Source: a virus (Duplodnaviria; Caudoviricetes). From it: a stretch of DNA of 64,000 nucleotides. Both the position numbers and the translations under genes were made by a program. Under the pieces are notes generated by a model that saw only the letters and a program-made list of their open reading frames with translations, searched no databases and was not told the origin of the DNA. Numbering within the stretch: position 1 is the stretch's first letter; every line of letters starts with the position of its first letter. The DNA lies in the IMG/VR virus record IMGVR_UViG_3300028048_000092, positions 42,680-106,679 of that record, one strand, 5' to 3'. Positions 1-54,100 of this stretch are shown here, one piece after another.

Positions 1-248
1 CTATCTCAGACGAAGTTGTCAGTAGGTTTGTCGGAAGTACTGTATTGTTTATTCATTTCCTTGTAGTTCTCTTGTTGTTCGGAGTGATGGTTTTCCTTCC
101 AACAACAAGAACTGCATTAGCTATGTATGTGGTCCCGAAGATTGCTGATAGTGAAGTTGTGGAGAAGCTGCAAGGGGATGCAAAGGAGTTATATACACTG
201 GGGGTTGAGAGATTGAAAGTAGAACTGAAGGGTAGGAATGTCAAGTAA
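1..248 (+). CDS. small membrane protein, 5' end probably outside window
   Basis: ORF track 45..248, hydrophobic stretch, ends TAA, overlaps next gene. Confidence 0.6.
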   Translation, partial: ISDEVVSRFVGSTVLFIHFLVVLLLFGVMVFLPTTRTALAMYVVPKIADSEVVEKLQGDAKELYTLGVERLKVELKGRNVK

Positions 249-477
249 GCTTAAGATAACGGACAAGATCGACATTGAATATTCGGCGGACAATGAGTTA
301 GCACAGGCTATAGAAGAGCACAAAGAGTATATAAAAGCTGAGACGCGCTGTACTTCATTGCGTCGTGTTGAAAAAGCAGGTAAGTTGGTCGATATTAACG
401 GTAAACCTTGCAGAATTACAATTAGAAAAAGTACAACGGAAGGAGCTCTAGATGATCAGAGACATTGCTTTTTGTGA
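238..477 (+). CDS. hypothetical protein
   Basis: Tightly packed ORF with purine-rich RBS, no TAG, ends TGA. Confidence 0.6.
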   Translation: MSSKLKITDKIDIEYSADNELAQAIEEHKEYIKAETRCTSLRRVEKAGKLVDINGKPCRITIRKSTTEGALDDQRHCFL

Positions 478-685
478 TAAGTGCGGAGTTGTCTTAAATG
501 ATAAACAGCAGGAGGGTATCAATGTTAGGTTTAGATCTTCCTGGCCAGACTATCATCTTGTATTATGCAGTGAGTGTTTCAAGGAATTCGCTAAGCTAGA
601 AGAAACTTTTACAGCTGCGCAAAGAAAGCTCGAGAACAGCAGTTGCAAAGAGATGGCTCAGCATATTCTGGAAAAAGAGGAATAA
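452..685 (+). CDS. small zinc-finger-like protein
   Basis: CDKC...CSEC pairs, RBS GGAG, ends TAA. Confidence 0.65.
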   Translation: MIRDIAFCDKCGVVLNDKQQEGINVRFRSSWPDYHLVLCSECFKEFAKLEETFTAAQRKLENSSCKEMAQHILEKEE

Positions 686-1263
686 TGGGAGATGAAAAAA
701 GTCAGAAGTCGTTGAATGGTATGAAGTTACTGATACTCGACATGGATGGTGTAGTAAATCGAGGTGCTGATAATTGTTCCCCTGACAGACATATCTATGA
801 TGATAGATTTTCTCATGTAGTACCTATGCAGAACGGTAAGGGTACCTGTGAGCTTACTTATGTGGACCCTGAACTGGCTAAGCGTGTAAGTAAGCTTATA
901 TCTGATTATGATCTTTATATAGTATCAAGCTCTACCTGGCGCCTTTATTATAGTCAGGAGGAGTTTAAAGAGCTTCTTACTCTTAGGGGACTGCCGGGAG
1001 AACGTCTTGTAGGATATACACCTAATCTTTATAGAGACAGCTCTTTCTTCGGTGGAGGCTGTCCCAGGCGAACTGAGATAAGGGCCTTTATGGAGCATGC
1101 TGAAGAAGAATTTGGCTGGGATATTGAATTCTATGTTATCTTAGATGACGATCCTTCGGCAAATTATGATACAGAAAAAGGCAGGCTCTTCTTAACGGAC
1201 TTCGATAAGGGCTATGATGCGGAGATCGATAAGGAAGTGAGAAAGTACTTGGATGAAAAATAA
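685..1263 (+). CDS. HAD-family phosphatase (Swiss-Army-knife RNA repair type HAD)
   Basis: Motifs LDMDGVVN, IVSSSTWR, YVILDDD; ATG at 685 after GAGGA. Confidence 0.8.
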   Translation: MGDEKSQKSLNGMKLLILDMDGVVNRGADNCSPDRHIYDDRFSHVVPMQNGKGTCELTYVDPELAKRVSKLISDYDLYIVSSSTWRLYYSQEEFKELLTLRGLPGERLVGYTPNLYRDSSFFGGGCPRRTEIRAFMEHAEEEFGWDIEFYVILDDDPSANYDTEKGRLFLTDFDKGYDAEIDKEVRKYLDEK

Positions 1264-1477
1264 AAAGGTTTGGTATATTTATTCTACTTATAGAGGGGTT
1301 TCTTCTACAGGACCTTTTTATAAATCAAAAAAGAAAGCCAGGGAGCAGCTTGATAAGTATTGTATAGGGCACTTGTGTCGATGGCTAGACAATGGTTATA
1401 AGAATAAGTGCCTTGTTGTATGTGATGATAAGGGTGAAATACACTATTATCAGATACTTTCTGCAGAATTGAATTAA
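1253..1477 (+). CDS. hypothetical protein
   Basis: ORF overlapping upstream stop, ends TAA. Confidence 0.55.
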   Translation: MKNKKVWYIYSTYRGVSSTGPFYKSKKKAREQLDKYCIGHLCRWLDNGYKNKCLVVCDDKGEIHYYQILSAELN

Positions 1478-3611: not shown

Positions 3612-3693
3612 GGGGCTGAGAAAAGTTTCGACAGCATGGAAAGCCAAAGTGCACCTGTCTGGACCCCCGGGGCAGTACCGGGCAGCTCCACCA
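3612..3693 (+). ncRNA. minimal tmRNA-like RNA (tRNA-like domain only)
   Basis: 5' GGGGCTGA...TTCGAC, 3' GGAC-CCCGG-GGCAGTA-CCGGG-CAGCTCCACCA; Ala-type G3.U70 acceptor stem; encoded CCA; no tag ORF. Confidence 0.8.
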
Positions 3694-5987: not shown

Positions 5988-8900
5988 ATGGCTGACAGCA
6001 GCTTCTGGAATATAGGAAATATAGAATATCCTGTAATACAAGGACAAGCGGGAAAGCCCTTCTACCATTAGCAAGGTCCTCTCATACAGTTCGGGTAGTA
6101 GCTGGTCGATAACAGCTGCCTTTGCAAGTACAGATATGCAAGGTACTTTGCTTACTACTGTGCAGTTCCTTCAGACAGCTCTTCCATAGCCTTTTTCAAG
6201 AACTTCGAGCAGGTTCCCTGGGAAGGGGGGCATAATATAAAGTTCCTTGATTATACCCAGGAAACAGCCAAAGGTTACCAATGGGGAATGTTCAAAGGAC
6301 CTGTATATCTGGGCTGCTATCCAACGGGTCACTTTACTACAGGGAAGTGGCTTCCGGTGGAGCTTCCCTATGAGAATGTTTCATAGGACCTTAATGTAAC
6401 TTCTCCTTCTCCTTATTATATATATTAGGAAAATGAGGACTACAACTACTCCTTGAAGTGCATGATAGTAAGTTCCTATTAGTGCTGCAATGGGGAGGAG
6501 GGCTGTGGAGTAGAAGTACAGAGAGGCTAGTACTTTGAAAGCTCTTTCCCATTCTGCTATGCATAGTTCTTTGTAAGTAACCTTGATGCAAGCGATGCTT
6601 CTCAGGTAACAGCTGCTCTTATAGAAGGCTCCCAGGGATGTGTATGCACTCCTCCTTACAGGATGCTTAAGAAGTTCTAGCAGTACGATTGCTCTACAGC
6701 TACTATAAGGGTATTCAAGTAGATGGTGCTTCTTCCAGAAGAACTCGACAGATGCTCTTAGTTCTGTCCCTCCTGCCAATAGGAGCTTCCTGCTTTAGCT
6801 CCCAATGCTGCTTTTTTAGCTAAGAAGGATTGTGTTTATTGGGTTTTATGGAAGTTCCCCCTTCCATAGGACTGCAGTGATTGTTCCAAGACTTTACATA
6901 AGATATAGTGGCAGTTGGTAACGGATTATAAAGATATCCCCGGGGAAGTTGTAGGGAAGGGGCCTGGGTGGAAGCCCCTGAGTTTCCATGATCCTGACGA
7001 GACCTTTACATACTGTGAATAGGAAGCTCCTGGAAAAGTCATCTTCCAGTGGCAGTATGTAAGGAATCCTCAGCCTTCCCAGGGAGAGATATAGGGCAGC
7101 CGCCCCGCTGTAAAGCCCGATGAAAACCCCTGCAAAGAATACTGCAGGAAGAACCCTCTGGCAAGGCCCTCCATATCAGACTCTTTGTCAGGTGCCTCCG
7201 ACAGTACTTTGTAGAAGCACTTTCCCTGCAATGAGCCCTAGCCTCCTCCTATGAAGTACAGAGAGTTCCTCCATACTGAGTTTGATGTATATGAGCTGTC
7301 ACTTCGAGTTACTGTCATTACAAGAGATCAGGTGAAGGAGTGCTATCAGAGCTATAAGATAGATACTCCCTTATAGGACTGGCATTGGAATCTTATTTAG
7401 AATGCTGTCTATGATTATCAGCTTACAAGCTACTTATATGGTACTTCCTTTCGGGGGACTGAAGTAAAGAACGGCTTTATCCATAAGTATGTTGTGCAGT
7501 TACATGGAGAAGAGCCTCCTGAAGATCCTTCCGGGGAGTATCAGGGAGACGACTTCGACATAGTAGCTGATGGAAGCTCCTACAACTTTGTCGATAAAAG
7601 TCAGAACCTTTGTCAGTATGCTTATCAAGTTTATTTAGCAGAGAAGTGTAAATGCTTTGGTGATTGTATTTCAGACTCCCGTTCCTGCAGCACATCAAAT
7701 CAGAGTGAATATATAAGTGGCTGGGGGTGCTCCAAATGGCAAAGTCTTGGTCAGCATTCTTAGTATTAGATAAGAAAGGAAATGCGGTTCTGCCTGGATA
7801 AGTGGAGCCGGAACCCGGAAGAGTCTGTACACAAGTAGTGGGTTTATACTACTTTGTCTGATGATCCTTATTTCTGTGAATAGTATCCCCAGCCACTTAA
7901 AAGGGGGATTATCTACGATAACTATGTATTTACACCAAACTGTTCCGATTCTACAAGTATAGTGGTATCTTTCCCTTTTGTTTCTTATCCCTGGTGTGGA
8001 AAACAGCCAAAAGCTTATTAGGGATATAAGGCATAGGACAGCCTATCCAGCTCCACTTTACTTCAAGTAGTGGACAATGTAATAGATCTTACCAATACAG
8101 ATCCTCCGATATGTACCGTATATGGATTTATTGATCCTCACAAGGTGGCGGTTTGGCCAGGGTTTATTTCAGAGCGGCCTGTGCGACCAGCGCCTTGCTG
8201 CGGAGAAGAGGCCTTCTATTCCGATAGCTGTCATGCTAAGGGCAAAATTTATTAGCCTCCCATTATAAAGTGGCCCAAGTCCTGTTTGTAGCTTCCAGCG
8301 TACGGAGTGAGAGTTTATATAGCTGCTTTTGGACATGCCTGGCCTGGGTTCATTTCCACGTAGAAGACCGTTGATTCCCAGACTAAGTACTATGTAAATG
8401 CTTCCAAGTTCCTGCAGTACTTCAACTGTACCAAGCAGTCTTAGCTGTAGTTCTATTAGGAGCTCCCATCGTAGTACCCTGAAGGATGGGATCCGCCTTT
8501 CTCAGGCTTCTATCAGACCGATTATCTTCCTGCAAAGGGTAACTGGTGCATGCCTCCCATAGGCTTCTTCAACTAGCTGTCCCCTGTGAACTTCAACCAG
8601 GGCTCTATAGCTTAGTGGGCAGGAGGTTCGGGAAAAGTCCTTTTGTATATATTCTCCGGGCATGCTTCCCGCTGCTAGTCACAGTTAGAGGTCGGCATAA
8701 GAGCACTTGCAGGGAAGAACATCGGCGGCAGAAAAGCTATAGGCGTCTAGATCCCCCTTAACAAGAAAGGGGCAGGAGATAACGGGACCATAGCATATTC
8801 TTATGATTGTGTTGATGTCAATCAGTTTATAGATCCCAATAGTGAGTACTATCATAAAGGTGTCTTATAGAGAGCCTATGAGAATCAGGATATAACAGGG

Positions 8901-10154
8901 TTCGTTGCCAATGGGTTTGTAGATGGTATAGATGCTTAGCTCTGCAATCGTATAGGAGGAAGCTTCCCCGGAGGAGCCTGCAGCAATGTGGAAAAGTTCC
9001 TGAATGAGTAGGAACTTCGTTAGCTGTTTGGTTCTGCTGCTGCAGGAAACTGGAACTCTCATTTCTTCACTTATGCTGATTTGAACTATCCGAAGAGTCC
9101 TTTCGGAAAAGCTTGCGCAGACAGTTATATAGGTGTCTCCGGGAGGACTGGGGGCAAAAACGCATCTTCACATGATGTTGCGCTGCTGATGCGGATGCAA
9201 AAACTGCCCAAGGCAGCTTCCAGGACAGCCTGGTATATCCAGAACTGCTATGTGACCTTTTATGACTAGGATGATGGATCTGAGATCCTTCCCGGCTGGC
9301 CCTACAGGGTGTATGATCAAGCTGTTGACTTTGGCTATTCTTTTTGTGTGGAAGGCTCTCCTTCCCAGATAACTTATCTTATAAATACGACAGAGAGCTT
9401 TACACCCTCTGATTAGGATGTATTTGCCGCGCTTATTAATGGCTCAAGAACTACATTCCACATATAGATACCTCCTTATCTGGCAGGAGAAGGGCTCTCT
9501 CCAACGGATCTTACTAGAAGTACTTTTCAGCTTGTATCTGTAAGGGACAGCAGGAAGTGGCTGAGCATTTCTGCTTCCACTTGGGATGGACGTTGCTATT
9601 TGGATGCTTACGGCGGGCTGCAGGTTACTACTGCAGATAACGGAAGCACTACTTGGAATTGTGAAACGCAGACATGTTATTGGGGATAGCAAACTACAGG
9701 AGATTGTGTTATTCCCACATTGGATATACTGCCCCACGGGGATTGCGATACAGAAACAGGTACCGTAGGCAGAAGCGGCTTTGGCAGATACCGCAGCCTG
9801 CTTAAAAATGCTTCTGACTCCGGTTATGCTCTAGTAAATACTTCCAGTATGCGTTTCTGTGATCTTCCTTAGGGGGTTTTTGCTGCGTTTCTTATAAGAG
9901 CCTTAGACAATTGGTACGACTTTCCAAGCAGCTATGCAAGGGTCTGTGATCAGAATTATTATAGAGCATCCAAAGATTGTATAGTCATACCTGTTCCCGC
10001 TAATCTTGAGGAGGGCGACTAGTATACTCTCAGTATAACTCATGATCTTTCAGATAGCACCACTTATGAATAGGAAGGAGATACTAGTTATCGTAAGTGC
10101 CATGTATAGATATAGCAGAAGTTCATTTTCCACTTGCCGACATAGTGGTACTGA
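5988..10154 (+). CDS. very large Cys-rich protein, probably structural (TAG=Glu, about 1388 aa)
   Basis: ATG 5988, fragments 7494, 8070, 9081 and terminal TGA 10152-10154 share one frame; dozens of TAG; not checked codon by codon. Confidence 0.65.
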
Positions 10155-12448: not shown

Positions 12449-13984
12449 ATGTCCAATATTCAGATACACTCTTATACAGGATAGGATCTATATCCCCGTA
12501 TCAAGACCAGCAATGTTATAAATGATGCGGGCTTTTTAGCTGTTTCCGATTCAGGCTCATAGGGAGCTATACTGCTGCTTACTTCATAGGGACCCAGGTG
12601 GAGTAAGCCGCAGTTTATATCCAACTACATAGAAATAACTTCCGTATCCGATTCAAAGATCTTTTTACAGGGAAGCAATATTCCAGTGGGAGTGGAAACT
12701 TCCCTTGGCAATTACTATCCTATTTAGAAGCGATCCCTTGTCATCGACTCCGATTCCATACAGATAAGTATCGATCCTTATCTTGCTTATGACGGGACAG
12801 CTTCTTTTGTTCCTCCCTGGAAGGTTTGGTTTTCCAGTGCCCCGGTCATTGTGGAGGGAGGAGCTTCCAATACACAGAAAATAATCAAGTTCCCAGGGGG
12901 TGCTTCAGGGTGGGCCTTCAAGCCCCTTCCCAATAGAGTCTATTATTATGATCTTATAGACAGCATTTCCGATTCTCTTGAAATAGACTTTCAGACAGCC
13001 GCCTTTTCCGATTCCACTTAGCAGTTCAACTTTGAAATGCAGATCGTACAAGGCGCTGTATATAATAGTAAAAATCTTATATGGAACACTTAGAAGGAGC
13101 TTCTGTGGAAAGCAGGAAGCACCTTCTCAAGTTCCAATTCAGCACCTGCTTTGGATTTGAAGGCACTGCACTGTTTTGACTTCAGGTGGGACGGTCAGCG
13201 GCTGCTCGGAGAGATGGCATACAAGATCTCCGATGTGGGTGCTTAGCAGAAGCCTCTAAGGCTGACAGCACAGGCTGCAAATTCTTCCGTTACACTCAAT
13301 TGGGTGGACTCTTCAGGAAGTGTTACTCCTCAGGCAGAGCTTTATTACAGAACAGCAGGAACTTAGTGGACTTCTTATACAATAGGAACTTAGCTGCAGC
13401 TTACTTCTACAGGAGACTGGGTGTAGTTCTGGAACAGCGCAAACAAGTTCTCCTATTCCACTGCAGCCTATTATCAGTTTGCCATGCAGGGTGTTATTGC
13501 GGCTTCCGGGAACATCATGTCCCTGCTGAATTATGGAAGTATGAAAGGGGCTGCTTTTGCATACTTGTTCAATGGTTGTGATTCTCTTACAACTGCTCCT
13601 GAGCTTCCTGCCACTGTCCTAGCGAGCAGCTGCTACTTTGCGATGTTTCGTACCTGCACGTCTCTTATTGTTGCACCTGTGTTGCCGGCATCTGTCTTAT
13701 ATAATAACTGTTATCAGTCAATGTTCCGCGGATGTACTTCTTTGACCGCTGTTCCATTGCTGTTTGCCAAGGCTCTTGTAAAAGGATGCTGTGCTTATAT
13801 GTGCTATAGCTGTACTTCTCTAAATGCTGTAACAGTTGCGTTTGACACCTGGGAAGACAATACCACTACCAGCTGGTTGTCCACTGTGGCCGCTTCAGGT
13901 ACCTTCACTTGTCCTTATGGGCTGTCCGATGAAGTGAGAGATACGAGCCATATTCCTTCCGGATGGACCGTTGTAAGAGTTTGA
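12449..13984 (+). CDS. fibre/adhesin with C-terminal BspA-type leucine-rich repeats (TAG=Glu, 511 aa)
   Basis: LTTAPELPATVLASSCYFAMFRTCTSL repeats; N-terminus paralogous to 14057. Confidence 0.75.
12491..12559 (+). repeat. 69-nt exact duplication (second copy 14102-14170)
   Basis: TATCCCCGTATCAAG...TCAGGCTCA identical; next codon is TAG here and GAA in the copy. Confidence 0.9.
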
Positions 13985-14056
13985 CAATATGAGCAATATG
14001 TATATACTATCCCAGAAAGATATTCTTCGGGCATTCATTGAATAAGAGAGGCATAG

Positions 14057-15970
14057 ATGTCTAATAACATACAACTACAGTCTATTTTCGGGAAGCCTTT
14101 GTATCCCCGTATCAAGACCAGCAATGTTATAAATGATGCGGGCTTTTTAGCTGTTTCCGATTCAGGCTCAGAAGGGCAGTTCCTGATACAGACTGCGGAA
14201 GGACCCAAGTGGGTAACTATATAGCAGTCGCAGCTGTAGTCCAATTACAGATACTTCTCTCAAGCCCCTCAAAACCTTGTTACTTTTCAAGGGCTGAGCA
14301 TTCCGGTTGGGGTAGAGGCACCTTCCGGCAATTATTATCCTGTTGAAAAGAACTCTTTATCTATAGGTTCCAGCAGTGTCACCCTTGACATCACTGCCTA
14401 TCTTGCTTATTAGGACACGCCTTCTATCAGCGGGCTTTGGAGAGCGTGGTTCTCCTCGGGAGGCACGCTTTCCGACAGCTTCTCTTTGAGTGACTATTAT
14501 ACCAAGTCTCAAGTGGATGAGCTTATTGCAGGGAACATTACGGAACGTACAGCTTTTGTGCCCTTTTCCAGTGTTACCAACAATAAAGTGACCTTTACAG
14601 GCTGCGGCATTCCTACCGGGGTGCTTACTCCTTCAGGCAGCTATTACAGCATATAGAAGAGCAGTGTGGAATATAATAAGCAGCTTGGCAGGACTGTATT
14701 GGATGTTTCTGCTTATTTAGCTTATTAGGACATGGCTTCTTTTTCAGGTACCTGGACAGCATGCTTCCCTACAGGTATAATAGGAAGCAACAGCAGCGGG
14801 TACTATACCAAGCAAGAGGTGGATGACCTCTTTGCACAGCTCTCAGACAGTATCCAGAATACTTATTACACTAAGAGTGAAGTAAACGGCTTTATCGATG
14901 CACTGTCGGACTCTATAGACGCAGTGAATACCAAGTTCTCCAGCTATTACACCAAGAGCGAGATGGATGAGAAGCTGCAGCGTAATAATATGCCCATCGG
15001 GACTATATTCTACTATCCTTCTTCAGTTCCACCAGAAGGAGCGTTTTTGTTGAATGGGCAGGTAATTTATAATTGCAATACACTATATCCCGATTTTTGG
15101 GAGTGGCTTGTTACAAATATTTCTGCAAGTAATATAAGGTCGTTGTCAGCTTCTTCTTATTAGGCATAGTTATCATCTAGAGGATTTTGTGGGGCGTTTA
15201 CTGTTAACAGCAGTACAGGCGCTGTCAGACTGCCTTGTCTTACAAATGCTTTTATACAAGGAAATGATAGTAATATTGGAGCTTCTATCGCTCCAGGCCT
15301 GCCGGATATTCAAGGTGAACTGCAGGCCACTTATTCAGTTTTCCGTGGAAGTGCTTCAGGTGCGCTTACCTACGCAAGTACCTAGACGCAGCTGTCGTCT
15401 CCGACTTTCCCGCAGACAGCTGTTACACAACGAGTAAAGTTTAAAGCAAGAAATTATAATACTATCTACGGCAATTCAACTACAGTACAGCCCCCTGCCG
15501 TAAAGTACTCTGTCTGTATCCAGGTATTCAATACTGCCCTGTCTCTCTCCAATCAAGTTTCTGCGCAGCTTGCTACAGAGTTGCAAAGCAAGGCCGGGAT
15601 AAACGCAGAGAATTTCACTGCGACAGGAAAAGATAGCCTAATCAACATTATGTCTGATTTTGCCCCAACTCAGGTCACATCTGTTGCTGCATTGAATACA
15701 TATTATACAGCCACCAAAGCTGGAATTTTGTATGCTTCTTTTACAAATAGTGTAAATGCTACTACAGATTGTTATATTGTAGCTGCAATAACTGAACCCA
15801 ATGTTACTACATCTTATTATTACTCTGGAGGATATGTAGCTGCCAGTCACACTCAAAGACATAGCCTGTTTATACCGAAAGGACAGCGATATAGGGTAGA
15901 CGCAGGCAATGCAAATATAACCTGGTCTGCTTTTTTTATCCCCCTTAGAAACTCCATAGCAACCAGCTGA
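14057..15970 (+). CDS. tail fibre protein (TAG=Glu, 637 aa)
   Basis: YYTK repeats; MPIGTIFY..PEGAFLLNGQ collar-like domain; GLPDIQG, IYGNSTTVQPPAV; fragments 14732 and 15581 in frame. Confidence 0.85.
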
Positions 15971-15978
15971 GGTGACTC

Positions 15979-16425
15979 ATGATTTACATCACATATGACA
16001 TCGAAACAGGTGCTGTAGATGATACAGCCTATGCCACTATAGATATAATCCCAGAGGGCAAAGCTTATCTGCCTCTTATGGAAGAGACCTGGAACAGCGC
16101 CCAGGGAAAGCTTATGAGAGTAGAGGACGGGCAGTTCATTTGCACAGATCCTCCGCCAACTGTGGCAGACTATGACAAAGCTATGGAAGACCATCTTGCA
16201 GCAGAAAGAGCAGCAAGGGGCTACACCATAAGAGAGCCTTCAGATTACAAAGACAGTTCCGTAGAGAGATGGAATCAGGATGCAATTGACTGGATCTCCC
16301 ACAGAGACGCTGTAATGCTTTACGGACTTGAAGTAATGAATCATTATGCAGAGACAGGAGAAGCCCCTTCCCTGCAATAGTTCAAATAGAACCTTCCCGT
16401 TATAACTTGGTCATATGAGGTATAA
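15979..16425 (+). CDS. tail fibre assembly/chaperone-like protein (TAG=Glu)
   Basis: Follows fibre gene; A.ARGY...Y.DS...W..DA..WI..RDAV...PSLQ*FK*NLP pattern; ends TAA. Confidence 0.7.
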
Positions 16426-16427
16426 GA

Positions 16428-17906
16428 ATGGAATATATCTTCACAGATTTACCTAGATATGTAAAGGTCACTGACAGAAGCCGTTTCAGCAATGCAGTGA
16501 TCCACGATGGGTATGTACTTTTGTTCTCTTAGGATGGACAGTCACTTACTGCAAAGCTTCCCAACGGTAGTTTCGTAAATGTGGGAGGAAGCGACTCCTT
16601 CTCATTCTCTCAGGTGACTGCAACTGCTTCGGATGTGCTCGCAGGAAAGTTCTTCCACAACTCCTCCGGTATCCTTGTAGAAGGTACTATACAGACAGTC
16701 ACAGCAGCTGTGAACGCCAATAAGATCGTTATTCCCAGAGGCTTTATAGAATCCGATTCCATTACGATCCCTTAGGCTGATCCTCTTACAGTCTCCGGCA
16801 ATACCGTTACAGTGCCTGTCGGTTATATAGCTTCCCAGAGAGTCGCCCAGATAGCTTAGGGAGGACCTGTTACTGTATCAGATAACCTGGTGCACATTCC
16901 GGCAGGCTGGAGAGCCGCATCAGACTCCGTTACAGTTGGTACACTGCAGGAGTCTTAGAGTTACACTCCGGGGACTTCTGATCAAGTTATTCCGGCAGGC
17001 ACTTATTTGGCAGGTGCACAGGTGATCCTGGGAGATGCGAATCTTATTTCTGGAAACATTGCTTCTGGGGTTACTATTTTCGGTGTACAGGGAACACATC
17101 AGGGAGGCACTTCTCTAAGGGCTGGTGTGCTGGTCTCTGACAGCGGCACACTTAAAGTGCAACCTCTTAGCTTTGACGGCACAATCCCCAGTGACAGTGG
17201 AACTTTGGAGAGCCTTTCTGATTCATCTCTATTGATCTTTGAGACAGGACATCCTGAGCCTGCTTATGACGGATAGGGAAGCACATCTGGAGATAACCCA
17301 TTTTAGCTGGTAGATTATATACAGTCAACCGGAACCCAGTACATAGATACAGGCTATTATCCTAAAGCTAATTCAAAGTTTGAATTGCTTGCAAATGTTG
17401 ACTCTGATAATACAAGTTATGTATGTCCTTTTGGAACTAGAGAAGGAACTGCTGGATATGCCAAAGAAAAACCCGCTTTGATATTTTTAAAATTTGATAG
17501 TGTTAATAAGTTAAATGCTGCATGGGGCAGTGATGATTATCAACTTTATTCCACAGAAAAATTCTTTAATACCAAGTGCGCGTATTCTTTATCTTCCGGA
17601 TATGTATCCTTAAAAACAGAAAATTTAAGTAACTGTATTGCTTATTCATTTACTGGAGGTTCAGTTACTGACAGTAGACCTATGTATTTGTTTGTTTTAT
17701 TGAATGGCAGTTCTCCTGATATCGATTGGACTATCTGTAGTATGAAATTATATAGGTTTAGAATCTCTGAAGGGGATGCTTTAGTGCATTAGTTTATTCC
17801 ATGGACGGATTCTCAAAATATAGTATGTCTGAAAGATACAGTCACCGGGGACTTGAAGTATAATATCGGTTCCGGCTCTTTTACTAGAGGCCGTGATAGT
17901 AATTAA
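16428..17906 (+). CDS. tail fibre/adhesin protein (TAG=Glu)
   Basis: TATASDVLAGK, YTPGTSDQVI..GDANLISGNI..GVTIFGV, YIQSTGTQYIDTG domains in one frame. Confidence 0.75.
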
Positions 17907-17921
17907 TAAGGACCCTTTTAC

Positions 17922-18833
17922 ATGAACATAACAGATTCTAATTTAGTTCCCGTTACAGCGCAGCCTAAGGCTGGGCAGCGTGTTATATAGATAGCTCCTG
18001 GAAAATGGATCCCTGTGGGCCTTGGAGGAAAGTTCCCTCCCGTTGCTGCTTCTTCCGACAGCACACTTTTGGCACTCGAAGCAGGGTACATCGATGAGAA
18101 TGGCAACTTCCAGCCGCTCTCCTTTAATGGTACTTAGGCAAGCGACTCCGGGAATGCTGTAGAGGGACTATAGCACAAGATCTTCAATACAGGACATGAA
18201 GAGCCTGATTATGGTGGCTCTGGTGGTTCTGGTATTCAATTGCCTAGCGATGCTTGTTTCTATCTGCCTCTTTCTACTGATGTGACAACACAAACCGGAC
18301 AAGCAACAACAGCGACTGGTATAACTTTTAACACTTAGGCAGGTATTACTGCTGCTGTGTTTGATGGCGAAGGGTATATAAGCTTCTCTGACTCAGGCTT
18401 ACCTGAAGATACTTCAGCTAGATCCTTTTCGTTTTGGTTCAAAAGAACCTCTTCTATTGACGATAATGTTGTTATTAATTACGGTGTGGATGCTATTAGA
18501 AAGCGCTTTGGTATTTTTTTAGCCGATACAGGACTCACCGTAGGTATAGGTGGTGGTTACAGTGTAAGTATTACACATGCTTTTGCTGCTAATAGGTGGT
18601 ACAACATAGTTGTAATATATGCTGATGGTTTTATTAATTTGTGTGTTGATGGTGGATAGATTCGCAGTGTGGAGGCGCCTTATTTTTCCACGGAACTGAC
18701 AGGAACAGGTTACATAGGTTATCGCAATGGAACCACGTTAAACGGAATGCTGGCAGGTGTCAGAGTATTTAATCGGGCACTTACGGCTGCAGATATATAC
18801 GCTTTAGCTCGTGAATTTGTTCCCACCGCTTGA
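17922..18833 (+). CDS. LamG/concanavalin-like domain adhesin (TAG=Glu)
   Basis: FDGEGYI, SFSFWFK, WYNIVV, VRVFNRALT; ends LAREFVPTA-TGA. Confidence 0.8.
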
Positions 18834-18848
18834 TAAAGGATCCTTCAT

Positions 18849-19199
18849 ATGAACTTAACAGAATCTAATTTAATTACTTTAAATACAGAGCTTAAACAAG
18901 GTCAGCGCTGTATCCGCATAGGTAACAGCATAATTCCTGTTGGAGTAGGTGGAAGCTTTGCTCCGGGCAGTGACTCCACTATTCCATAGGCAGCCGATGT
19001 CATCCTCGGTGTAGTGGATGCCCAGGGAAAGTTCCAGCCCTTCAAGTTTAATGGTACAGAAGCCTCCGATTCAGGATAGCCTATTACAGTCTCTTAGTAC
19101 AAGAGCTGGAACAGCACTTTGCCTGCGCCCACACCAAGCCCTTCCGGCGGCATGGACGATCTTTAGTTCTTTGATTGGTATACAATTTTATCTAAATAA
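18849..19199 (+). CDS. short paralogue of the adhesin N-terminal module (TAG=Glu)
   Basis: NLTESNLI..GQR.I.I...IPVGVGG and FQPFKFNGTEASDSG shared with 17922. Confidence 0.7.
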
Positions 19200-19211
19200 G
19201 GAGTTTTGAAA

Positions 19212-19508
19212 ATGGATGTTAAAAGATTTGATGTTGTAACGAACGCGAGTGACTCCGCTTCTATCTGCACTGTTCCTTCCGGGAAAGCTTACACAGTGAC
19301 AGGATTTACTATTGTGGAAACTGAAGGCAACTCAGGGGAAATTACACTGAAAGTAGGAAACCAGATCATCGGGCAGTTCGGAGTGTCCGGACCAGATACT
19401 ATTTATCCTGTCACCAATGTTAATTTGACTGCTTCTTAGACACTTAAAGTAGATTGCTCTATATCTGGTGTTTATGTCACCGCTTCTGTTGTGGAAAGGG
19501 ATGTGTAA
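19212..19508 (+). CDS. small beta-rich structural protein (TAG=Glu)
   Basis: TVPSGKAYTV motif; one TAG; ends TAA overlapping next ATG. Confidence 0.7.
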
Positions 19509-19795
19509 TGAGCGGGACACTGGGAGCGATTCGCCGGGAACGGCAAAGAAGGGAAGAAGTTCTCCGCAAGGCTCAGGCGGAAGCCGATAAGCGGCAGTCT
19601 CTTGAGCTGAACCGCGAGGCTGTCATTGCGGAGATTTGCGAGGCTTTCGGCTGGACGGAACTGGATGAGTTCGCCCGGAAGATGATCGATGACGCTTTCG
19701 CCGGGCAGCTGGTAGACGTGAAGCAACTAAAAAAAGACCTTGCCAAGTGGAAAGAAGAACAGGAGCATCCGCAGGAGTCTCCGAAGGAGGAATAA
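19508..19795 (+). CDS. hypothetical protein
   Basis: Coupled ATG; Glu-rich yet TAG-free; higher GC than neighbours. Confidence 0.65.
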   Translation: MSGTLGAIRRERQRREEVLRKAQAEADKRQSLELNREAVIAEICEAFGWTELDEFARKMIDDAFAGQLVDVKQLKKDLAKWKEEQEHPQESPKEE

Positions 19796-19796
19796 C

Positions 19797-21215
19797 ATGC
19801 CACTGTATCATCACCAGGTTAGCACTTCTGATGTATATGTACCAACAGGGAAAACCATGCCTACAGGGGCAGTGTTCTATGCGCCGTTATCGTCTGCGTC
19901 TGCGACGGCAGCGACCGGGCAGACGTTAACGGCAAAAGGGACTGCTACATATCAGAATCAACAAGGCATCAACTGCGTTTATTTTAATGGAAGTTCTTCA
20001 TATATTTACATCCCTGAAGCCCTTGCCGATACCTTTCCTGGGTTAAGTTCCAAAGATACCTTAGCTTATTGTTGCTGGTTCAACACAAAAAATAAAAATG
20101 CCGGCCAGGAGATAATCTCTTGTACAGAGGGTGGGGGGTTTAGTATTGGATTAAATTCGGACGGCAATTCGGGTTATATGCATATTTATGTGATGGCAGG
20201 TGGTTCATATTTAAATGAGAATATTTGTCCCATTTCCAAGGTAAAACAGGATCAGTGGATGTTTATATGCGTTAATTATAACGGAAGCACTGTTGATGTA
20301 TATTTAGATAACGAGAAGGTAAATTCTTTTAATAAAACTGGGAATCTTGGCATGCCGAACAACGCTCCTTTGGCGATAGGAGCAGAAAGCGCGGATCTAT
20401 CTACGACGTTTTCTTCTGATTGTTTCAATGGTTATATATCTTCCGTGCGCGTCTACGACCGTGCCTTAACCCAATCGGAAATTACCACTCTATCGCAAGA
20501 GTTTGCCCTTGCCGTGGAGACTTCCGGCTTCGATGAGCTCGGCCATCCGGTGCAATATGATTCTGCCTTTGATGCTGGGTGTTCACTTTCTTACAGCTGG
20601 GTAGACGAGAATACAATATTATATATTCCTATGTATGGTAATTCTCCTTTTACCGATAAAAGTCAGAATCAATATTCAGTAACGAACAATGGTGTAACTG
20701 CTGTGACTAATGTCGCACCTCCTTCAGGAGGAACAGGGGCTGGATACTTAAATTCAACAAACCACTATCTATATACAGGAATTAATATCCTCAACGGTCT
20801 GACTACTTTTACGCTTGAGTTTGATTTCAGGCTGACACAAATCCCCAGCGGGGGAAATGACTGGGACGACGGCTATTACTTCGCTGCCAACGGGAATAAT
20901 TACGACAATCCAGGATGCGACATGTATTTTGGAACCTCTCAGATTGTTCTTAATTTTGACAACTATAATAATCGGGTTGGAACTTCTTATACACCCGATA
21001 CGAATTGGCACAACCTTAAGATAACACGAGATTCATCTAATCTGGTATCCGTTTACATAGACGGCGTATTAATAAACAGCTATACCCGTTCCAATAGTTT
21101 TTACTCTGGTTCGTATGGCTTCGCGATCGGCAGAGTAGAGCCGCAGGGAGAAACCGGAGGTGCTGGTTTCCATGGGTATATAGCAAACTACCGAATTTCT
21201 AATATTGTGAGGTAA
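19797..21215 (+). CDS. double LamG domain adhesin
   Basis: Two LamG-like domains (FNGYISSVRVYDRALT; FHGYIANYRISN); RBS GGAGG; no TAG. Confidence 0.85.
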   Translation: MPLYHHQVSTSDVYVPTGKTMPTGAVFYAPLSSASATAATGQTLTAKGTATYQNQQGINCVYFNGSSSYIYIPEALADTFPGLSSKDTLAYCCWFNTKNKNAGQEIISCTEGGGFSIGLNSDGNSGYMHIYVMAGGSYLNENICPISKVKQDQWMFICVNYNGSTVDVYLDNEKVNSFNKTGNLGMPNNAPLAIGAESADLSTTFSSDCFNGYISSVRVYDRALTQSEITTLSQEFALAVETSGFDELGHPVQYDSAFDAGCSLSYSWVDENTILYIPMYGNSPFTDKSQNQYSVTNNGVTAVTNVAPPSGGTGAGYLNSTNHYLYTGINILNGLTTFTLEFDFRLTQIPSGGNDWDDGYYFAANGNNYDNPGCDMYFGTSQIVLNFDNYNNRVGTSYTPDTNWHNLKITRDSSNLVSVYIDGVLINSYTRSNSFYSGSYGFAIGRVEPQGETGGAGFHGYIANYRISNIVR

Positions 21216-21220
21216 ATATC

Positions 21221-22435
21221 ATGATATATCACCACCAATACAGCAACAAAGAAGTTTCGGCTGTTCCAACTACATTTACATCCAATACTTCTATTTCAGG
21301 ATATGTATGTTCGGCAAGTAATACTAATAGCAGCAATTACCCATGGAAGATATGGAAGCAGGACTACACTACATCCGAGTGGGCATGGTGGCCAGGGAAT
21401 GTGAGTTTACCACAGTGGGTACAAATTGAAGTTCCAGAAGCATTCGTTCCGACATCATTCATGGTCATGAATGAAATAGCAACTCCAGCGTCAATGAAAG
21501 CAGGGATATTTCAGGGATCAAATAACGGTTCAAACTGGACTGACTTATATACGATCTCTGATTGGCCAGCTGATGCTGGATATAGGAACACAATGGAACT
21601 CTCTACCAATAATGCTTACAAGTATTACAGGTTGTACGTTACAGATGGATGGGTATCAGGTGATGCTGTATCAATCCAGGCCATGAAGATATTCAAGAGG
21701 GATATGCACCCTTCTTCCGGCTTCAACAACTGGGGTAAACCTGTCAAGTATCGCTCAGCTAAACTGGCTAAGTGCAACTGGAACCCGATACCGCAGGAAG
21801 GACTGGTCTTCTATGCATCATTGGCTGAGGATTCCGCTACAGCTGAAACAGGGCAGACCTTCACAAAGAACAGTAAGGGGAACGGCATATCCTTCCAAAC
21901 CTACAAGAATGTTCCTTGCGTTAGATTGCAAGATGGCAGCAACATGAAGGTAACTGCCATGACGGATATTCCAACTGGCAATAATCCTTTTACTATTTCC
22001 GCGTGGCACAATCTATTGATTCGCCCTGATGATGATTATGGTGTAGCTGGTTTCGGCTATGGAACGGATGGTGAACGTAGTCTTGTAATAACATGGTTTT
22101 CCGCTGCATATGAAGGACCAGAGAATAATATCGCAATTAATATTCGTGTCTCAAGCGGACTGGGCACCGGGGCAAAATATGTCCTTGGCAACTGGTATCA
22201 TGTAGCATGTACTTTCGATGGGACAACATTCAAGACTTATGCTAACGGCGTTTTTGGAGACTCTGGAACAAGAACACTTAGTATGGGGAATACCGCTATA
22301 TACATAGGAGCTCTCAATAATAACCAAACAAATCCCTGGCGCGGTTATCTTGCTGGATGCCGCATCTATAATCGTGCATTAGACGAAAGCGAGATAGCCA
22401 AGCTCGCCAATGAGTTCCATCCTACCAATGACTGA
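21221..22435 (+). CDS. discoidin (F5/8-C)-like plus LamG adhesin
   Basis: LPQWVQIE..FQGSNNGSNWTDL..YKYYRLYV, then LamG (WYHVACTFDG, CRIYNRAL); no TAG. Confidence 0.85.
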   Translation: MIYHHQYSNKEVSAVPTTFTSNTSISGYVCSASNTNSSNYPWKIWKQDYTTSEWAWWPGNVSLPQWVQIEVPEAFVPTSFMVMNEIATPASMKAGIFQGSNNGSNWTDLYTISDWPADAGYRNTMELSTNNAYKYYRLYVTDGWVSGDAVSIQAMKIFKRDMHPSSGFNNWGKPVKYRSAKLAKCNWNPIPQEGLVFYASLAEDSATAETGQTFTKNSKGNGISFQTYKNVPCVRLQDGSNMKVTAMTDIPTGNNPFTISAWHNLLIRPDDDYGVAGFGYGTDGERSLVITWFSAAYEGPENNIAINIRVSSGLGTGAKYVLGNWYHVACTFDGTTFKTYANGVFGDSGTRTLSMGNTAIYIGALNNNQTNPWRGYLAGCRIYNRALDESEIAKLANEFHPTND

Positions 22436-22445
22436 GGCACTTTAA

Positions 22446-22826
22446 ATGTACATCAAAGACTCTCCTAAGCTATAGAAACTTCTGAAGAAGTGCCAGCTTA
22501 CAGAATTTGGACGCTGGTTGAGGTGCTTTGACTGGAGCTCCATAAGGCTCTTTAAAGTCCCTTTTAAAAAATAGGGGCTTTTCACAGCCTGCTACATAGC
22601 TCCTCTCAATTGCATCCTTGCAGCTCCCGACTAGGATGGCAGAGTCTTTTTCAGTACTATATGCCATTAGCTGTATCATGCTTATCAGAAGCGTGTGAAC
22701 GGAATGTTCAAATATTTGATACTAAAGACCTTTAGAAGAAATAAATTATAGCTACCCGCTTAGGCAGCTTAGTTGAGTGCTGCTTAGTGGGCCTGCCAGC
22801 AACCCAGATAGGAGTTTGATATATGA
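22446..22826 (+). CDS. small zincin-like metallopeptidase (TAG=Glu, 126 aa)
   Basis: ICH*LYHAYQ = HExxH with TAG (22668-22670) at the catalytic Glu; downstream L*LPA*AA*. Confidence 0.75.
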
Positions 22827-23755
22827 GTAACTATTCTGATTCTAATTTGATAAGCATCCCTGCTGCGAGTGTCCCTGCAGGCACTTTGGCAATGAAGGTT
22901 GGCAATAATATCTTTACTGCGGGGAATGTAGTCATAAGCGGCTCTTCCATGGACTTCTACAAGTGCTCTTATGTAAACTCCAATAGCTGGGGAGGGTATA
23001 AGGCAGTACAGGACCCAGACACGAAAATATACAGTTTTGAAAGTAACTCTACTGCGGGGTTATTATATGATCAATCAAGCCCAGAAGTAGGAGGAATTTA
23101 TTCTCAAGACGCTTTAATCTAGGTAGCTAGGATGTGGAAGGGTATTCCTCAAACAGGTCTGGTTTTTTATGCCCCGTTAACTACAAACTCTGCCACCGCA
23201 GAGACAGGGCAGTCACTTTCGTATAAGAATTGCACTTTTACAACATATAAGGGAATATCAGCTGTACGGATGTCGTATGCATGTATTACTACTGGTATAC
23301 TTGCTCAAAGCGGATTGGACTCTGGCTTTACGCTTTCGATGTGGTTCTGTGATGATAGTTTCAGTAATAACTCAATTATTGCGCACATTGGAGATTGGGG
23401 TGGTGAGTCAGGTTACTGGTGTGGTCTCCAGTCCAATAATTATAAGCCTCAGTTATATTATCAGGAAGGAGTTGGAGCAGGAAGCAATAATAGTCTACAG
23501 AACAATACCTGGTATCATGTGGCATATGAGCAATATAATGGTACAGCTAAAGCGTGGATAAATGGAGTTGAAGATCTTAATACGTCAACTGCTACGACGC
23601 AATGTTCCGGACTTCCTTTGTACATTGGAGATATTGACGGCTATTCTTCTCAATATCCATTTCAGGGATATTTAGCTGCAGTTAGACTTTATAACCGCGC
23701 TCTGACCACAGTAGAAATCGCCGCCCTCGCCTCCTAGTTCACCCCTACAGCCTGA
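22823..23755 (+). CDS. LamG domain adhesin (TAG=Glu)
   Basis: GLVFYAPL..ATAETGQ, WYHVA, VRLYNRALT; ends LAS*FTPTA-TGA. Confidence 0.8.
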
Positions 23756-45007: not shown

Positions 45008-48000
45008 ATGCCCACTATGTCTCCTAATAAGGTTGTATAGAAGAATGCCCAGGACTGGGTACGCGATTTAAGATTCTCCAATCAAGTCAATATGCAGACT
45101 ATGGGAGTGGACACCGACCGTGTAACTCCATAGCTCCTTTTAGCTTCCAGCAATAAACTTCTCGGTATCTCCAGAGGAACTACTTAGGGAGACATGAAGG
45201 ACTCCCTTCAGTTCCAGCGCTTTTACGGACCTGTAGAGTACTTTGCTGAAAGGATCCAGAAAGATGGCGGCAGCGTAGCCAGAAGTATGCTCTGGAAAGC
45301 AACTAACAGAGGCAACTTGGACTTTATCGGTTCAGGTTCTCTGCAGCCGCATGTAAATGCAGTGTTCCATGAAAGTAATCTTTCCCAGTTCGTAGACAAT
45401 ACAACTCCTTTGGATGGGATAGACAACTCCCAGAAAGTAACCCGCATAGGCGAGGGCGGACTCAGCGATGAAGATTCCGCGCCTATCGAGATGCGTCTTG
45501 TGCAGCCCTCTTATTATGGTTATGTAGATCCGGTAAGGTGCTACGATGATAAAACAGAGATCTATACTAAAAAGGGCTGGAAATCAGTAACCGAAATGTC
45601 CCTGGAAGATGAGTTTGCTGTACTTATTGATGGTAAACCTGCATGGAGCAAACCCATCTCTCTTCAGAACTTCGATCATGACGGTCTGATGTACTGCTTT
45701 GAGAATTGCTATATCAACTTCTCTGTAACTCAGGGTCACCGTATGTATGTCTCTAAGGAAAAAGGCGGTGAGTATGGTATAGAATTTATTGATAGTCTCT
45801 TTGGAAACTCCAAGTATGTGCTTTGCGGTGCTAAGAAAGCCTCTGTTGTAGATGAAAAACAGAAATGGTTCTATCTGCCCAAAGTTGATCAGGTGGGAAC
45901 TGTAAAGAACATAGACAAGCTGGATATAGTTGATTTTGCAAGATTCATGGGCTGGTATCTCAGTGAAGGTTCCTGTGATCTTTCCCACTCCGGTTCAGGC
46001 TCCATTGATTACAGAGTCCGTATCACCCAGTCCCCTGTTCTTCATCCGTAGAACTACGAGGAAATAAGAGACCTTGTAGAGAAGCTTCCTTTCGGCGCCC
46101 ATCCGAAGCATTACTGGGAAGCCAACAGCTCCGATATAACCATCAAGAGAAAGCAGCTCTATTACTATCTGGAACAGTTCGGAGGTTCTCTTGACAAGTT
46201 TATTCCTGATTGGATCTTTACAGCTCCCACAGAAGCCAGATGGGCCTTTGTAGATGCTATTTTAAAAGGCGACGGCAGCAACCAGAGAGATCTTAATACT
46301 ATTTCCAAGAGACTTGCAGAGGATTTTGCCAGACTTATGTTCGAGTTGGGGCAATCTGTAAGAATAATCTCTTCCCAGCAGACTTATATCGGAGTCAATG
46401 GAAAGCAGGCAGGTCTTATTTATCAGATTACCTGGCACAAGCGCTATGAACATAAGCTGGAAGCCAGAAAGAGAAAAGACCGCAACAGCGGCAAAGGTTA
46501 CTACACAGAATACTATAGAGGCAAGGTCTATTGCCCGACAGTCCCTGGCGGCCTTGTATATGTAAGAAGAAAGAACTCCAAAGGTTTCTGGTGCGGGAAC
46601 ACCGCGTAGAAGAGCCCCGGTATTACAGGTTACCTTACCAAGAATGTAATGAAAGGTACCGATGGCAAACTTTATCAGAAGTTCATCAATATGCACACAG
46701 GGCAGACCTAGATGCTGGATGCCCAGACAGCCGCCAAGAAGATCATCACCACCAATGAGTATCTGGACTCTAAGGATGATTATGTCTATGCAATTGGAGG
46801 ACCGAGAGGTCTGAGAGTGGTAAAGCGCAGCGACGTTGATTATATCCTGCCGAATGCGGATGATGCTTTCTCTGCAAACGCTAATGCGGTTCCCATGCTG
46901 TCAGGTATCAAAGCTATGCGGCTTCTCATGGGATGCCACCATCCGGAAACTCCTATAGCTGTTATCGACAAGCATGGTTATACCCATATAGTCCCTGCCA
47001 AGAGAGTGGGGCACATGGGACCTGTATATGTCTTCGGCTGCGATGAAAAGGGTATCGATCAGGTATATCCTGTAAGAAAAGTCGTTACCAGAGTGCCTGC
47101 CAAGAAGAGCAAGTTCAAGAAAGTCATTCTTGGTTCCGGCAGAGTGCTGCTAACTTCTGCTGAACATAAATGGTGGACTTATCAGGAAGGCTTCAAGCTT
47201 CTGCAGGCAAAGGACCTTAAGGAAGGCATGCTGGTTCCCAGAAGCCTCTTTACTTCTATGCCCGTGAGACTCACTGAAATAATGGGAGTCCCTGTTACAA
47301 GAGAGATCTGTGTCTTTATGGGACGCCTGATAAGAAGCCTTAAAGCCACCAGCTACAGTTATCGAGTCACTTATGTGAAAGACAGAGACAGAGGTATCGA
47401 CCAGAAAGTAGATATCCTCACAGCTTTGGAGCAGCTCGGCATAAAGAATTATAATGTATTCAGTGCCAGAGGGCTTCATGCAGTATCCATAAAGGATCCT
47501 GTTTTCCAGGATTGGGTGGATCAGAATATAGGTGAGCTCCCAGAAGACAGACGCATTCCAAGCGCCATTCTTTCTCTGCCGGAAGGATATACCAGTATCT
47601 TCCTGGATTCTTATTATAAAGATCTTGAAACTGTTGGTGAAGATGATCAGGGAGATACCTGGCTTCTCAGCATCGCCAATCCTGCCTTGAGAGACTCTCT
47701 GAGTTTTATGCTCAATAAGATCTATACAGACACAAAATATAGAGACGTTACCAAGAAGGATTATATCCACAGGGCCCTGCAGCTGTTCCCTGCAAGCACT
47801 TCGCTGGGAGATATCGTATTGGAGAAGATAACTAAGATCCTTGATGTCCAGGCTCCTCCGGTAATGATCGATATAGACTGCGACGATCATGTATATGCTG
47901 CTGCCAATGGTATTATTACACATAACAGTAAGTATGTAAGTCAGGCAGTTCCTTTACAGTAGCGGGAAGCTCCCCTTGTGAGAAATCTGGATGCTGCCAC

Positions 48001-54000: not shown

Positions 54001-54100
54001 CAAGGATGTAAAAACTTTTGCCTCCACAGCAGACGCCCGCAAGGCCTACCTGAAGGGCTAGATCGATATAGACACTCCAATAGTGATAAAGGAAAAGTAA
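45008..54100 (+). CDS. RNA polymerase beta(C)-beta'(N) fusion precursor with five inteins (TAG=Glu, 3030 aa)
   Basis: All track fragments 45194..52313 share one frame; beta motifs RIGEGGL, GYVDPVR/TA*, LLMG/S..QAVPL, GRNL..YEDA, GDKL, PDEKMP, LKH..KMSARG, RIGNLE; beta' motifs GLFG*DIFG, IPVLPPKFRP, NRAPSLH, DFDGD. Confidence 0.92.
45539..46600 (+). mobile_element. intein 1 with LAGLIDADG endonuclease
   Basis: CYDDKTEI...FWCGN/T; FMGWYLSEGS and FVDAILKGDG. Confidence 0.9.
46934..47926 (+). mobile_element. intein 2 with degenerate endonuclease region
   Basis: CHHPETPI...TSAEHKW...ANGIITHN/S within LLMG/SK. Confidence 0.88.
48830..49282 (+). mobile_element. intein 3, mini-intein (151 aa)
   Basis: CYDV*TEFLT..GW, VTPKHR, VYCPTV, RRNGK.IVAHN/T within PLGIVSR/TN. 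Confidence 0.88.
49595..50794 (+). mobile_element. intein 4 with LAGLIDADG endonuclease
   Basis: CFPAM...TKNHKM, LYGTLMGDS, WFLDDGS, VYDFTVEDTHNY..VRVSN/S. Confidence 0.88.
52136..53836 (+). mobile_element. intein 5 with LAGLIDADG endonuclease, Ser start and Asp end
   Basis: Inserted at DFDGD/TVNIHVP; TASEDHSL, LGLMVGDG, MGLLATDG, GWDCTVPG, GTVVQD/T. Confidence 0.85.
52226..52254 (+). promoter_or_regulatory. sigma70-like promoter inside intein 5
   Basis: TTGACA-N17-TAGATT, followed by AAGGA RBS and in-frame ATG at 52313. Confidence 0.55.

Follow-up and report, generated by a model that had tools for sequence, protein, structure and literature searches.

TAG appears to be read as glutamate in the late genes of a large recoded phage

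Two reassignments of stop codons have been observed in phages, TAG to glutamine (Gln) and TGA to tryptophan (Trp) (Borges et al., preprint 10.1101/2021.08.26.457843). The Gln reading of TAG has been seen by proteomics for two crAss-like phages (PMC9523058), and TAG is also read as Gln in phAss-1. In the Lak phages some TAG codons stand opposite glutamate (Glu), yet TAG was read as Gln (PMC8346664). A survey of 180 phage suppressor tRNAs, conducted in a study of theta ribozymes, predicted isotypes for Gln, Trp, Ile and Tyr, with Glu absent (PMC10879173). In the searchable literature these are the only two phage reassignments, and TAG as Glu in a phage would be new. The stretch of DNA analysed here, referred to as the window, is 64,000 nucleotides long and comprises bases 42680-106679 of the linear 106,679-bp IMG/VR record IMGVR_UViG_3300028048_000092. 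The record, 57% complete according to CheckV, is a fragment of a large gut or rumen phage of approximately 190 kb, of which the window is the late half. In its late genes, TAG is a sense codon that stands where related phages have Glu.

When the contig is translated with the standard code, 77% of it lies in open reading frames (ORFs) of 100 codons or more, the longest with 612 codons. With TAG as a sense codon coverage becomes 97% and the longest ORF has 3043 codons, whereas with TAA as sense there are no long frames, the longest being 652 codons. There are 345 in-frame TAG in the window, spread over 43 plus-strand genes and accounting for up to 7% of the codons of single genes. Genes end in TAA or TGA only and TAG terminates none. 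The use of TAA as a terminator in this contig separates it from NCBI genetic code 30, in which TAA and TAG are both Glu. The TAG codons are absent from the 45 early genes (10,301 codons) in the first 44 kb of the genome, a block whose end, by in-frame TAG count, lies at 1..1477 of the window on the plus strand. From approximately 48.6 kb of the genome on, they are found in nearly all plus-strand genes. This division between early and late genes is the pattern known from recoded phages, and the contig has two of the features that mark a stop-codon-recoded phage, these being many in-frame TAG in conserved genes and an early block that can be read in the standard code.

All proteins of the contig were aligned, with TAG masked as X, to those of standard-code relatives, including three near-complete genomes (93-100%; G003-G005, 164-205 kb) and several partial ones. 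Many of the aligned TAG sites are supplied by the fused RNA polymerase beta/beta'-like gene (45008..54100, plus strand, 3030 codons, 47 TAG), which has a standard-code homologue of 1720 aa. At 104 TAG sites (386 aligned residues) the partners were Glu (.31), Asp (.16), Lys (.08) and Gln (.06). In the same alignments the phage's own GAA and GAG (GAR) codons faced Glu (.32), Asp (.14), Lys (.08) and Gln (.08), and its own CAA and CAG (CAR) codons faced Gln (.31) and Glu (.10). On these alignments, TAG has the partner profile of GAR codons, unlike that of CAR codons. Over all aligned residues TAG is opposite Glu 120 times and Gln 22 times. When one subject is taken per site, the 97 TAG sites have Glu at 30, Asp at 12, Gln at 8 and Lys at 7. 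The initial annotation, which had proposed TAG as a synonymous Glu codon, would have been contradicted had TAG faced CAR as frequently as GAR once more sequences were aligned, and in these alignments it did not. Nor are the TAG positions of the window Gln in homologues (Glu 30 against Gln 8), as they would be under NCBI genetic code 15. At the 97 sites Glu leads Gln by 19.7 log-likelihood units and Asp by 37.3, and it was chosen in 978 of 1000 bootstraps over genes. The TAG columns that are invariant in at least three relatives are Glu in seven cases, Asp in one and Gln in none.

The same comparison was conducted for G001, a complete TAG-recoded relative of 192,052 bp with terminal repeats. 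Its TAG codons were aligned to the standard-code relatives at 563 sites, with Glu at 171 and Gln at 28, a log-likelihood lead for Glu of 115. Glu was chosen in all 1000 bootstraps, and 35 of the invariant columns are Glu and none is Gln.

Individual columns can be followed in the LigD-PE/ligase-like gene (57341..58651, plus strand, 436 codons, 23 TAG), for which a search returned 73 proteins. The 17 closest homologues (58-91% identity) have Q at most of the window's TAG positions and an unusual composition, with 6-10.6% Gln and 0.9-3.7% Glu. For two of these the DNA was checked, and it matches the database entry only when TAG is translated as Q. The Q in these entries is therefore not evidence for Gln, because the TAG codons were translated by table 15. 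Public protein collections translate this clade with TAG as Gln, which generates false Q-rich proteins (P0003-P0020). The 43 more distant homologues (54% identity or less) have a normal composition, with 2-5% Gln and 3-7% Glu in the standard-code homologues, and the three that were checked (P0027, P0040, P0047) are in the standard code. In columns 233 and 330, where the window has TAG at 58037 and 58328, all 43 standard-code homologues have Glu. Nearly all of them also have Glu in columns 82, 98 and 155 (TAG at 57584, 57632 and 57803), and in two LigD-PE domains of solved structure column 82 is occupied by the Glu of the FEG motif.

The composition of the phage proteins points in the same direction. 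Glu falls from 8.5% in the early genes to 4.2% in the late genes, where TAG makes up a further 2.0%, and the ten genes richest in TAG contain 3.6% Glu and 4.5% TAG. Gln is flat between early and late genes at 3.3-3.7%. The per-gene frequency of TAG has a correlation of -0.37 with that of Glu and -0.05 with that of Gln. In the late genes TAG represents 33% of the TAG, GAA and GAG codons together, in keeping with the synonymous Glu codon of the initial annotation.

Codon exchange was counted against three recoded relatives (G001, L001 and L002), in which 276 TAG codons of the phage could be aligned. These face TAG (95), CAG (28), GAG (22), GAA (20), GAT (14), GAC (12) and CAA (3). In the reverse direction, TAG in the relatives faces GAG (57), GAA (47), CAG (22) and CAA (3). 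Expressed per codon, TAG replaces 14.1% of GAG and 8.0% of GAA in the recoded relatives, and 3.5% of CAG and 2.1% of CAA. When TAG and GAR are pooled, 50% of the TAG codons remain within the pool, as do 45% of the GAR codons, while passage to CAR is 11% for TAG, 8% for GAR and 47% for CAR itself. The numerous GAA partners of TAG are two nucleotide changes away, and therefore point to conservation of the amino acid rather than mutational nearness.

Paralogous genes within the window provide evidence that is independent of any relative. The region 12449-23755 contains 47 in-frame TAG, in 8 of its 10 genes, and the genes discussed here are all on the plus strand. Two tail-fibre-like paralogues lie at 12449..13984 (511 codons, 10 in-frame TAG, open only with TAG as sense) and 14057..15970 (637 codons, 8 in-frame TAG). 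They share an exact duplicate of 69 nucleotides (12491-12559 and 14102-14170), followed by TAG at 12560-12562 in the first copy (12491..12562) and by GAA at 14171-14173 in the second (14102..14173). The translations of the same pair have SGS-TAG opposite SGSE, TS-TAG-GPRW opposite TAEGPKW, and YPI-TAG-KRS opposite YPVEKNS. A virion or tail protein gene (17922..18833, 303 codons, 5 TAG) has NGT-TAG-ASDS at 18135, where a small paralogue (18849..19199, 116 codons, 4 TAG) has NGTEASDS with GAA at 19059. Another tail or virion protein gene (22823..23755, 310 codons, 2 TAG) has LAS-TAG-FTPTA at 23735, and the corresponding motifs are LAREFVPTA in the 303-codon gene (GAA at 18813), and LSQEFAL (20490) and LANEFHPT (22403) in two tail-protein genes without TAG (19797..22435, 472 and 404 codons). 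These exchanges, and every position reported for them, are as had been described in the initial annotation. An all-against-all comparison of the contig proteins (22 paralogue pairs) placed TAG opposite Glu 8 times, TAG 4, Ser 3, Asp 3, Lys 2, Ile 2, Tyr 2 and Gln 1. At least 8 Glu among 25 partners would be expected from composition alone with P = 5.5e-6. In a profile test on this modest sample Glu was best, with Asp 7.8 and Gln 9.1 log-likelihood units behind.

Candidate decoders are found in the recoded relatives. G001 has a tRNA(CUA) at 90,597-90,924, adjoining a tRNA-Met, which is interrupted by an intron of 252 nucleotides. The 5' exon ends in U and the intron in G, as expected for group I, and the intron matches the Rfam group I model RF00028, although its 31 bits (E = 2.3e-5, with 3 kb searched) do not reach the gathering score of 50. 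Two more recoded relatives (L164 and L165) have an intron-less tRNA(CUA) in the same neighbourhood. The tRNA of L165 has 26 of its first 27 nucleotides, the whole D arm and a 4-nucleotide variable loop in common with an E. coli tRNA-Glu. When the L165 and L164 tRNAs were searched by blastn against 5,426 E. coli genomes, the matches were to genes annotated as tRNA-Glu only, with full-length identities of 76-77% for L165 and 71% for L164, the latter a weak match (E = 2). The G001 suppressor is more divergent, with 57% identity to tRNA-Glu, and resembles none of the 21 tRNAs of the standard-code relatives. The identity elements recognised by E. coli glutamyl-tRNA synthetase (GluRS) include U11-A24 and U13-G22 in the D arm and a missing base 47. 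U11-A24 and U13-G22 are kept in all three suppressors, and those of L164 and L165 are predicted to be of the tRNA-Glu type. When IMG/VR was scanned for exact patterns of the suppressor sequences, G001 itself was the only match, or there was none. In a separate observation, eleven JGI metagenome contigs (L168-L178) fit a pattern in which a CUCUAAA anticodon loop accompanies a D arm of the tRNA-Glu type. In ten, a tRNA(CUA) is predicted by ARAGORN; several lie within tRNA arrays that are phage-like, and U1-A72 ends occur in some.

G001 also encodes a protein of 356 aa with the class I Glu/Gln catalytic domain (PF00749, 142 bits). Amongst the NCBIfam models the best match is to bacterial GluRS (gltX, 203 bits), followed by GluQRS (109 bits) and GlnRS (glnS, 24 bits). 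The HIGH-type and KMSKS-type motifs are present as H-x-G-N and P-L-S-K-R-D, which do not vary across 13 members of the family. An AlphaFold model (predicted local distance difference test score 90.5) has bacterial GluRS as its best fold matches, with template modelling (TM) scores of 0.82-0.84. Compared to the solved GluRS 2o5r, the G001 protein is shorter by approximately 60 residues in the insertion domain and by approximately 58 in the C-terminal region, and it has no match to the anticodon-binding domain PF19269. The compact family has lengths of 354-385 aa (against approximately 460-490 for full-length GluRS) and forms 13 clusters well apart from cellular GluRS.

The TAG-free gene for this compact GluRS travels with TAG recoding in the relatives. 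All five genomic contexts that were read (G001, L078, L079, L082 and L179) are TAG-recoded, and in all five the GluRS-like gene is itself free of TAG; where its Glu content was measured it is normal, at 4.4-7.9%. In the TAG-rich genes around it TAG stands at 2-7%, with Glu down to 0.8-1.8% in L079 and L179. The three standard-code genomes, near-complete at 93-100%, lack a GluRS-like gene. In G001, L078 and L079, where the neighbour could be matched, the gene is divergently oriented from the homologue of a 1388-codon gene of the window, the giant late protein gene at 5988..10154 (plus strand, 51 TAG). In G001 the suppressor tRNA and the synthetase are not in one operon, but approximately 70 kb from each other. 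One copy of the compact GluRS, and a ligase 70% identical to that of the window, are both on contigs of 149,272 bp, and probably belong to the same phage.

Taken together, the comparisons suggest a phage that uses two codes, in which late TAG would be Glu and would be decoded by a phage tRNA-Glu(CUA) and a compact GluRS-like enzyme. The probability of this joint reading is estimated as approximately 0.88. The early genes of the first 44 kb, being free of TAG, could be translated by the unmodified host. The late genes, encoding virion, tail, RNA polymerase and RNA-repair proteins, use TAG as a third Glu codon, for approximately one Glu codon in three. As the relatives suggest, TAG would be decoded by a phage-encoded derivative of tRNA-Glu with the anticodon CUA, which a putative shortened GluRS-like enzyme would charge with glutamate. 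The product of the latter could be made before the code switch, since its gene is TAG-free. Late genes might not be expressible until this decoding kit had been made, so that the split code would delay late expression, as has been proposed for other recoded phages. It is on balance probable that this clade of large gut and rumen phages carries a natural and self-contained code-switch kit, consisting of the tRNA-Glu(CUA) and a compact GluRS with a cut-down anticodon-binding part, that turns UAG into Glu in an infected standard-code bacterium.

Several observations weigh against this reading. There is no tRNA(CUA) in the window's own 106.7-kb contig by ARAGORN, Rfam or a hairpin scan. Neither the window nor the contig as a whole yielded a tRNA in ARAGORN, whose relaxed and intron modes returned only noise; Rfam at the gathering threshold gave nothing in the window; and a scan of the contig for hairpins with a NUCUARN anticodon loop gave no tRNA-like candidate. 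There is also no GluRS-like gene, or other E/Q-type synthetase, in the 106.7-kb contig, and upstream of the 1388-codon gene the phage has something else where the relatives have the GluRS-like gene. The proposed decoder is thus taken from relatives whose ligases are 62-77% identical to that of the window. The match of the G001 protein to GluRS, at 203 bits, falls below the NCBIfam cut-off of 290. No release-factor gene was found in the window's contig (G000) or in G001. When the comparison with recoded relatives starts from TAG in the phage, the codon most often faced, apart from TAG itself, is CAG (28), and the 97 sites of the window, taken alone, allow a mixture of Glu and Gln with up to approximately 39% Gln. 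The slight excess of CAG fits a single C/T transition together with the chemical similarity of Glu and Gln. For the decoder, synteny is informative: the contig corresponds to the part of G001 that starts at 171 kb, crosses the genome ends and continues as far as 77 kb, and the counterpart of 77-171 kb is missing. The region syntenic to the G001 suppressor falls in this missing part, and both decoder genes of the phage may lie there.

Alternatively, TAG may be read as Glu by host enzymes only, with a host GluRS, and not a phage synthetase, charging a tRNA(CUA) of the phage or of the host. This is unlikely, although the absence of a GluRS-like gene from the syntenic place and from the rest of the recovered 57% would fit it, and a host GluRS might accept a suppressor such as that of L165, which has the same D arm as an E. 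coli tRNA-Glu. However, the short GluRS gene is present in five of five recoded contexts and in none of three standard-code genomes, and one copy is on a contig whose length, 149,272 bp, is that of the contig with the ligase 70% identical to the window's. In addition, the anticodon is a major identity element for E. coli GluRS; an ordinary GluRS should therefore accept a tRNA(CUA) poorly, which speaks against charging by the host.

A very small probability is attached to ambiguous decoding, in which TAG would give a mixture of Glu and Gln or of Glu and Asp, or would be read differently in different relatives. The share of Gln that the window allows is compatible with this, Asp is the second commonest partner of TAG, and the G001 suppressor is far more divergent from tRNA-Glu than those of L164 and L165. 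The maximum-likelihood share of Glu in a Glu/Gln mixture model is 0.88 for the window (support interval 0.61-1.00), but for G001 it is 0.96 (0.85-1.00). Moreover, the Asp and Gln shares of the TAG profile are those of ordinary Glu codons.

It is less probable still that TAG is glutamine, as in NCBI table 15. Precedent in the literature of recoded phages favours Gln, as do the 28 of 276 aligned TAG codons that face CAG in recoded relatives and the Q at 8 of the 97 sites. Against these stand the log-likelihood deficits of Gln in the window (19.7) and in G001 (115), and invariant columns that include no Gln in either, with seven and 35 Glu respectively. Reading TAG as Q gives the ligase proteins a Q-rich and E-poor composition that their standard-code homologues do not have. 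Furthermore, the suppressors match tRNA-Glu rather than tRNA-Gln, and the phage-borne synthetase is of the GluRS type (gltX 203 bits, glnS 24 bits). That the TAG codons are real stops, in broken genes, assembly errors or sites of occasional read-through, is scarcely credible given 345 of them in 43 genes and none at a gene end, TAG facing TAG in 95 of 276 aligned codon pairs with relatives, and long conserved frames such as the 3030-codon RNA polymerase gene that are open only with TAG as sense.

The two TAG-free tail genes at 19797-22435 sit inside a tail cluster that otherwise uses TAG, and may be recent imports from standard-code phages or may be meant for expression before the switch. The 126-codon gene that follows (22446..22826, plus strand) has 9 TAG (7%), including H-TAG-LYH at 22668, which becomes HExxH with TAG as Glu. 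This was not counted as evidence, since the 126-aa protein has no family match, and is suggestive only. Homologues of the 3030-codon RNA polymerase gene in the relatives have intein or LAGLIDADG matches, and the 1720-aa standard-code version is intein-free. A second RNA-polymerase-like gene (63054-63998) runs past the end of the window. At 643-1263 and 57341-60265 there is a possible RNA-repair set, comprising a HAD domain as found in 'Swiss Army Knife' RNA-repair proteins, the LigD-PE/ligase-like protein, a GNAT acetyltransferase and an HD-domain protein. Apart from that of the HAD domain, these genes are amongst the TAG-richest, at 5-6.5% of codons. For most of the late proteins, PHROGs and Pfam gave little, and a 740-aa protein used alone as the query for related loci found no relative.

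Two tRNA-like elements of the contig were considered as amber suppressors and rejected. One is the Rfam tRNA match (RF00005, 36 bits) at genome positions 11975-12057 (L009:1501-1583), outside the window, which was missed by ARAGORN and has no D arm, an anticodon loop of CUUAUAC, an extra arm of 24 nucleotides and an encoded CCA. The other, at 3612-3693 of the window, contains no CUA. It is 82 nucleotides long, with a 7-bp acceptor stem (including G3-U70), a T arm and an encoded CCA, and has a weak Rfam match to alpha-proteobacterial or permuted transfer-messenger RNA (20 bits, E = 0.002). It adjoins approximately 1 kb at the early/late boundary (2640-3610) without a convincing ORF, in which there are many GNRA-type hairpins and no group I match in Rfam. 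Within this, the 19 nucleotides at 2855-2873 are identical to part of the putative group I intron of the G001 suppressor tRNA and to two further sites in G001 (160.4 and 163.1 kb).

If TAG is indeed Glu in this clade, gene callers and databases that fix table 15 make its proteins wrong, with Gln at no fewer than a third of the true Glu positions, including invariant Glu in conserved motifs. Such residues would degrade homology searches, structure prediction and annotation, and any search or fold that begins from these entries would inherit them. Amber reassignment in phages would also not be limited to what the host GlnRS or TrpRS tolerates. The association of a TAG-free, shortened GluRS with phages in which TAG is Glu makes the charging of the suppressor directly testable, and the compact enzyme is a natural candidate for a GluRS-based amber-suppressor pair, of interest for genetic-code expansion. 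If true, this would be a new genetic code of a prokaryotic virus together with a naturally evolved amber-suppressing GluRS/tRNA pair.

To our knowledge, TAG as Glu is otherwise found only in the nuclear code of peritrich ciliates (NCBI table 30), where TAA and TAG are both Glu. The reading of TAG would be shared with the phage, but the ciliate code is genome-wide in a eukaryotic nucleus and reassigns TAA, which is a stop here, where only part of a phage genome is recoded. The compact enzyme resembles GluQRS (YadB), a truncated paralogue of GluRS, in combining the catalytic core of GluRS with a shortened C-terminal part, and the NCBIfam GluQRS models match it with 109 bits. GluQRS modifies queuosine in tRNA-Asp and does not charge the 3' end. 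The phage protein is nearer to bacterial GluRS (203 bits; TM 0.82-0.84 against 0.50-0.53 for YadB) and, unlike GluQRS, keeps approximately 120 residues after the catalytic core. The theta-ribozyme survey also classed phage tRNA(CUA) genes by body type, although with no Glu isotype amongst them (PMC10879173). The nearest mechanistic analogue is the 'code change module' of the TGA-recoded Jade phages, a suppressor tRNA, TrpRS and RF1, all in the standard code (Borges et al., preprint). It differs in its use of TGA and TrpRS, against a shortened GluRS, no release factor found, and a tRNA and synthetase approximately 70 kb apart in G001; in both cases a phage synthetase free of the recoded codon is combined with a suppressor tRNA. 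The code-15 phages (crAss-like, Lak, Agate and phAss-1 amongst others; preprint 10.1101/2021.08.26.457843, PMC9523058, PMC10607447) likewise confine TAG to late structural genes and have TAG-free early genes, carry a phage tRNA(CUA), sometimes with an intron (in this clade found in the relatives), and have close relatives in the standard code. In those phages TAG is read as Gln; here it would be read as Glu, and the suppressors of the relatives appear to be of the Glu type.

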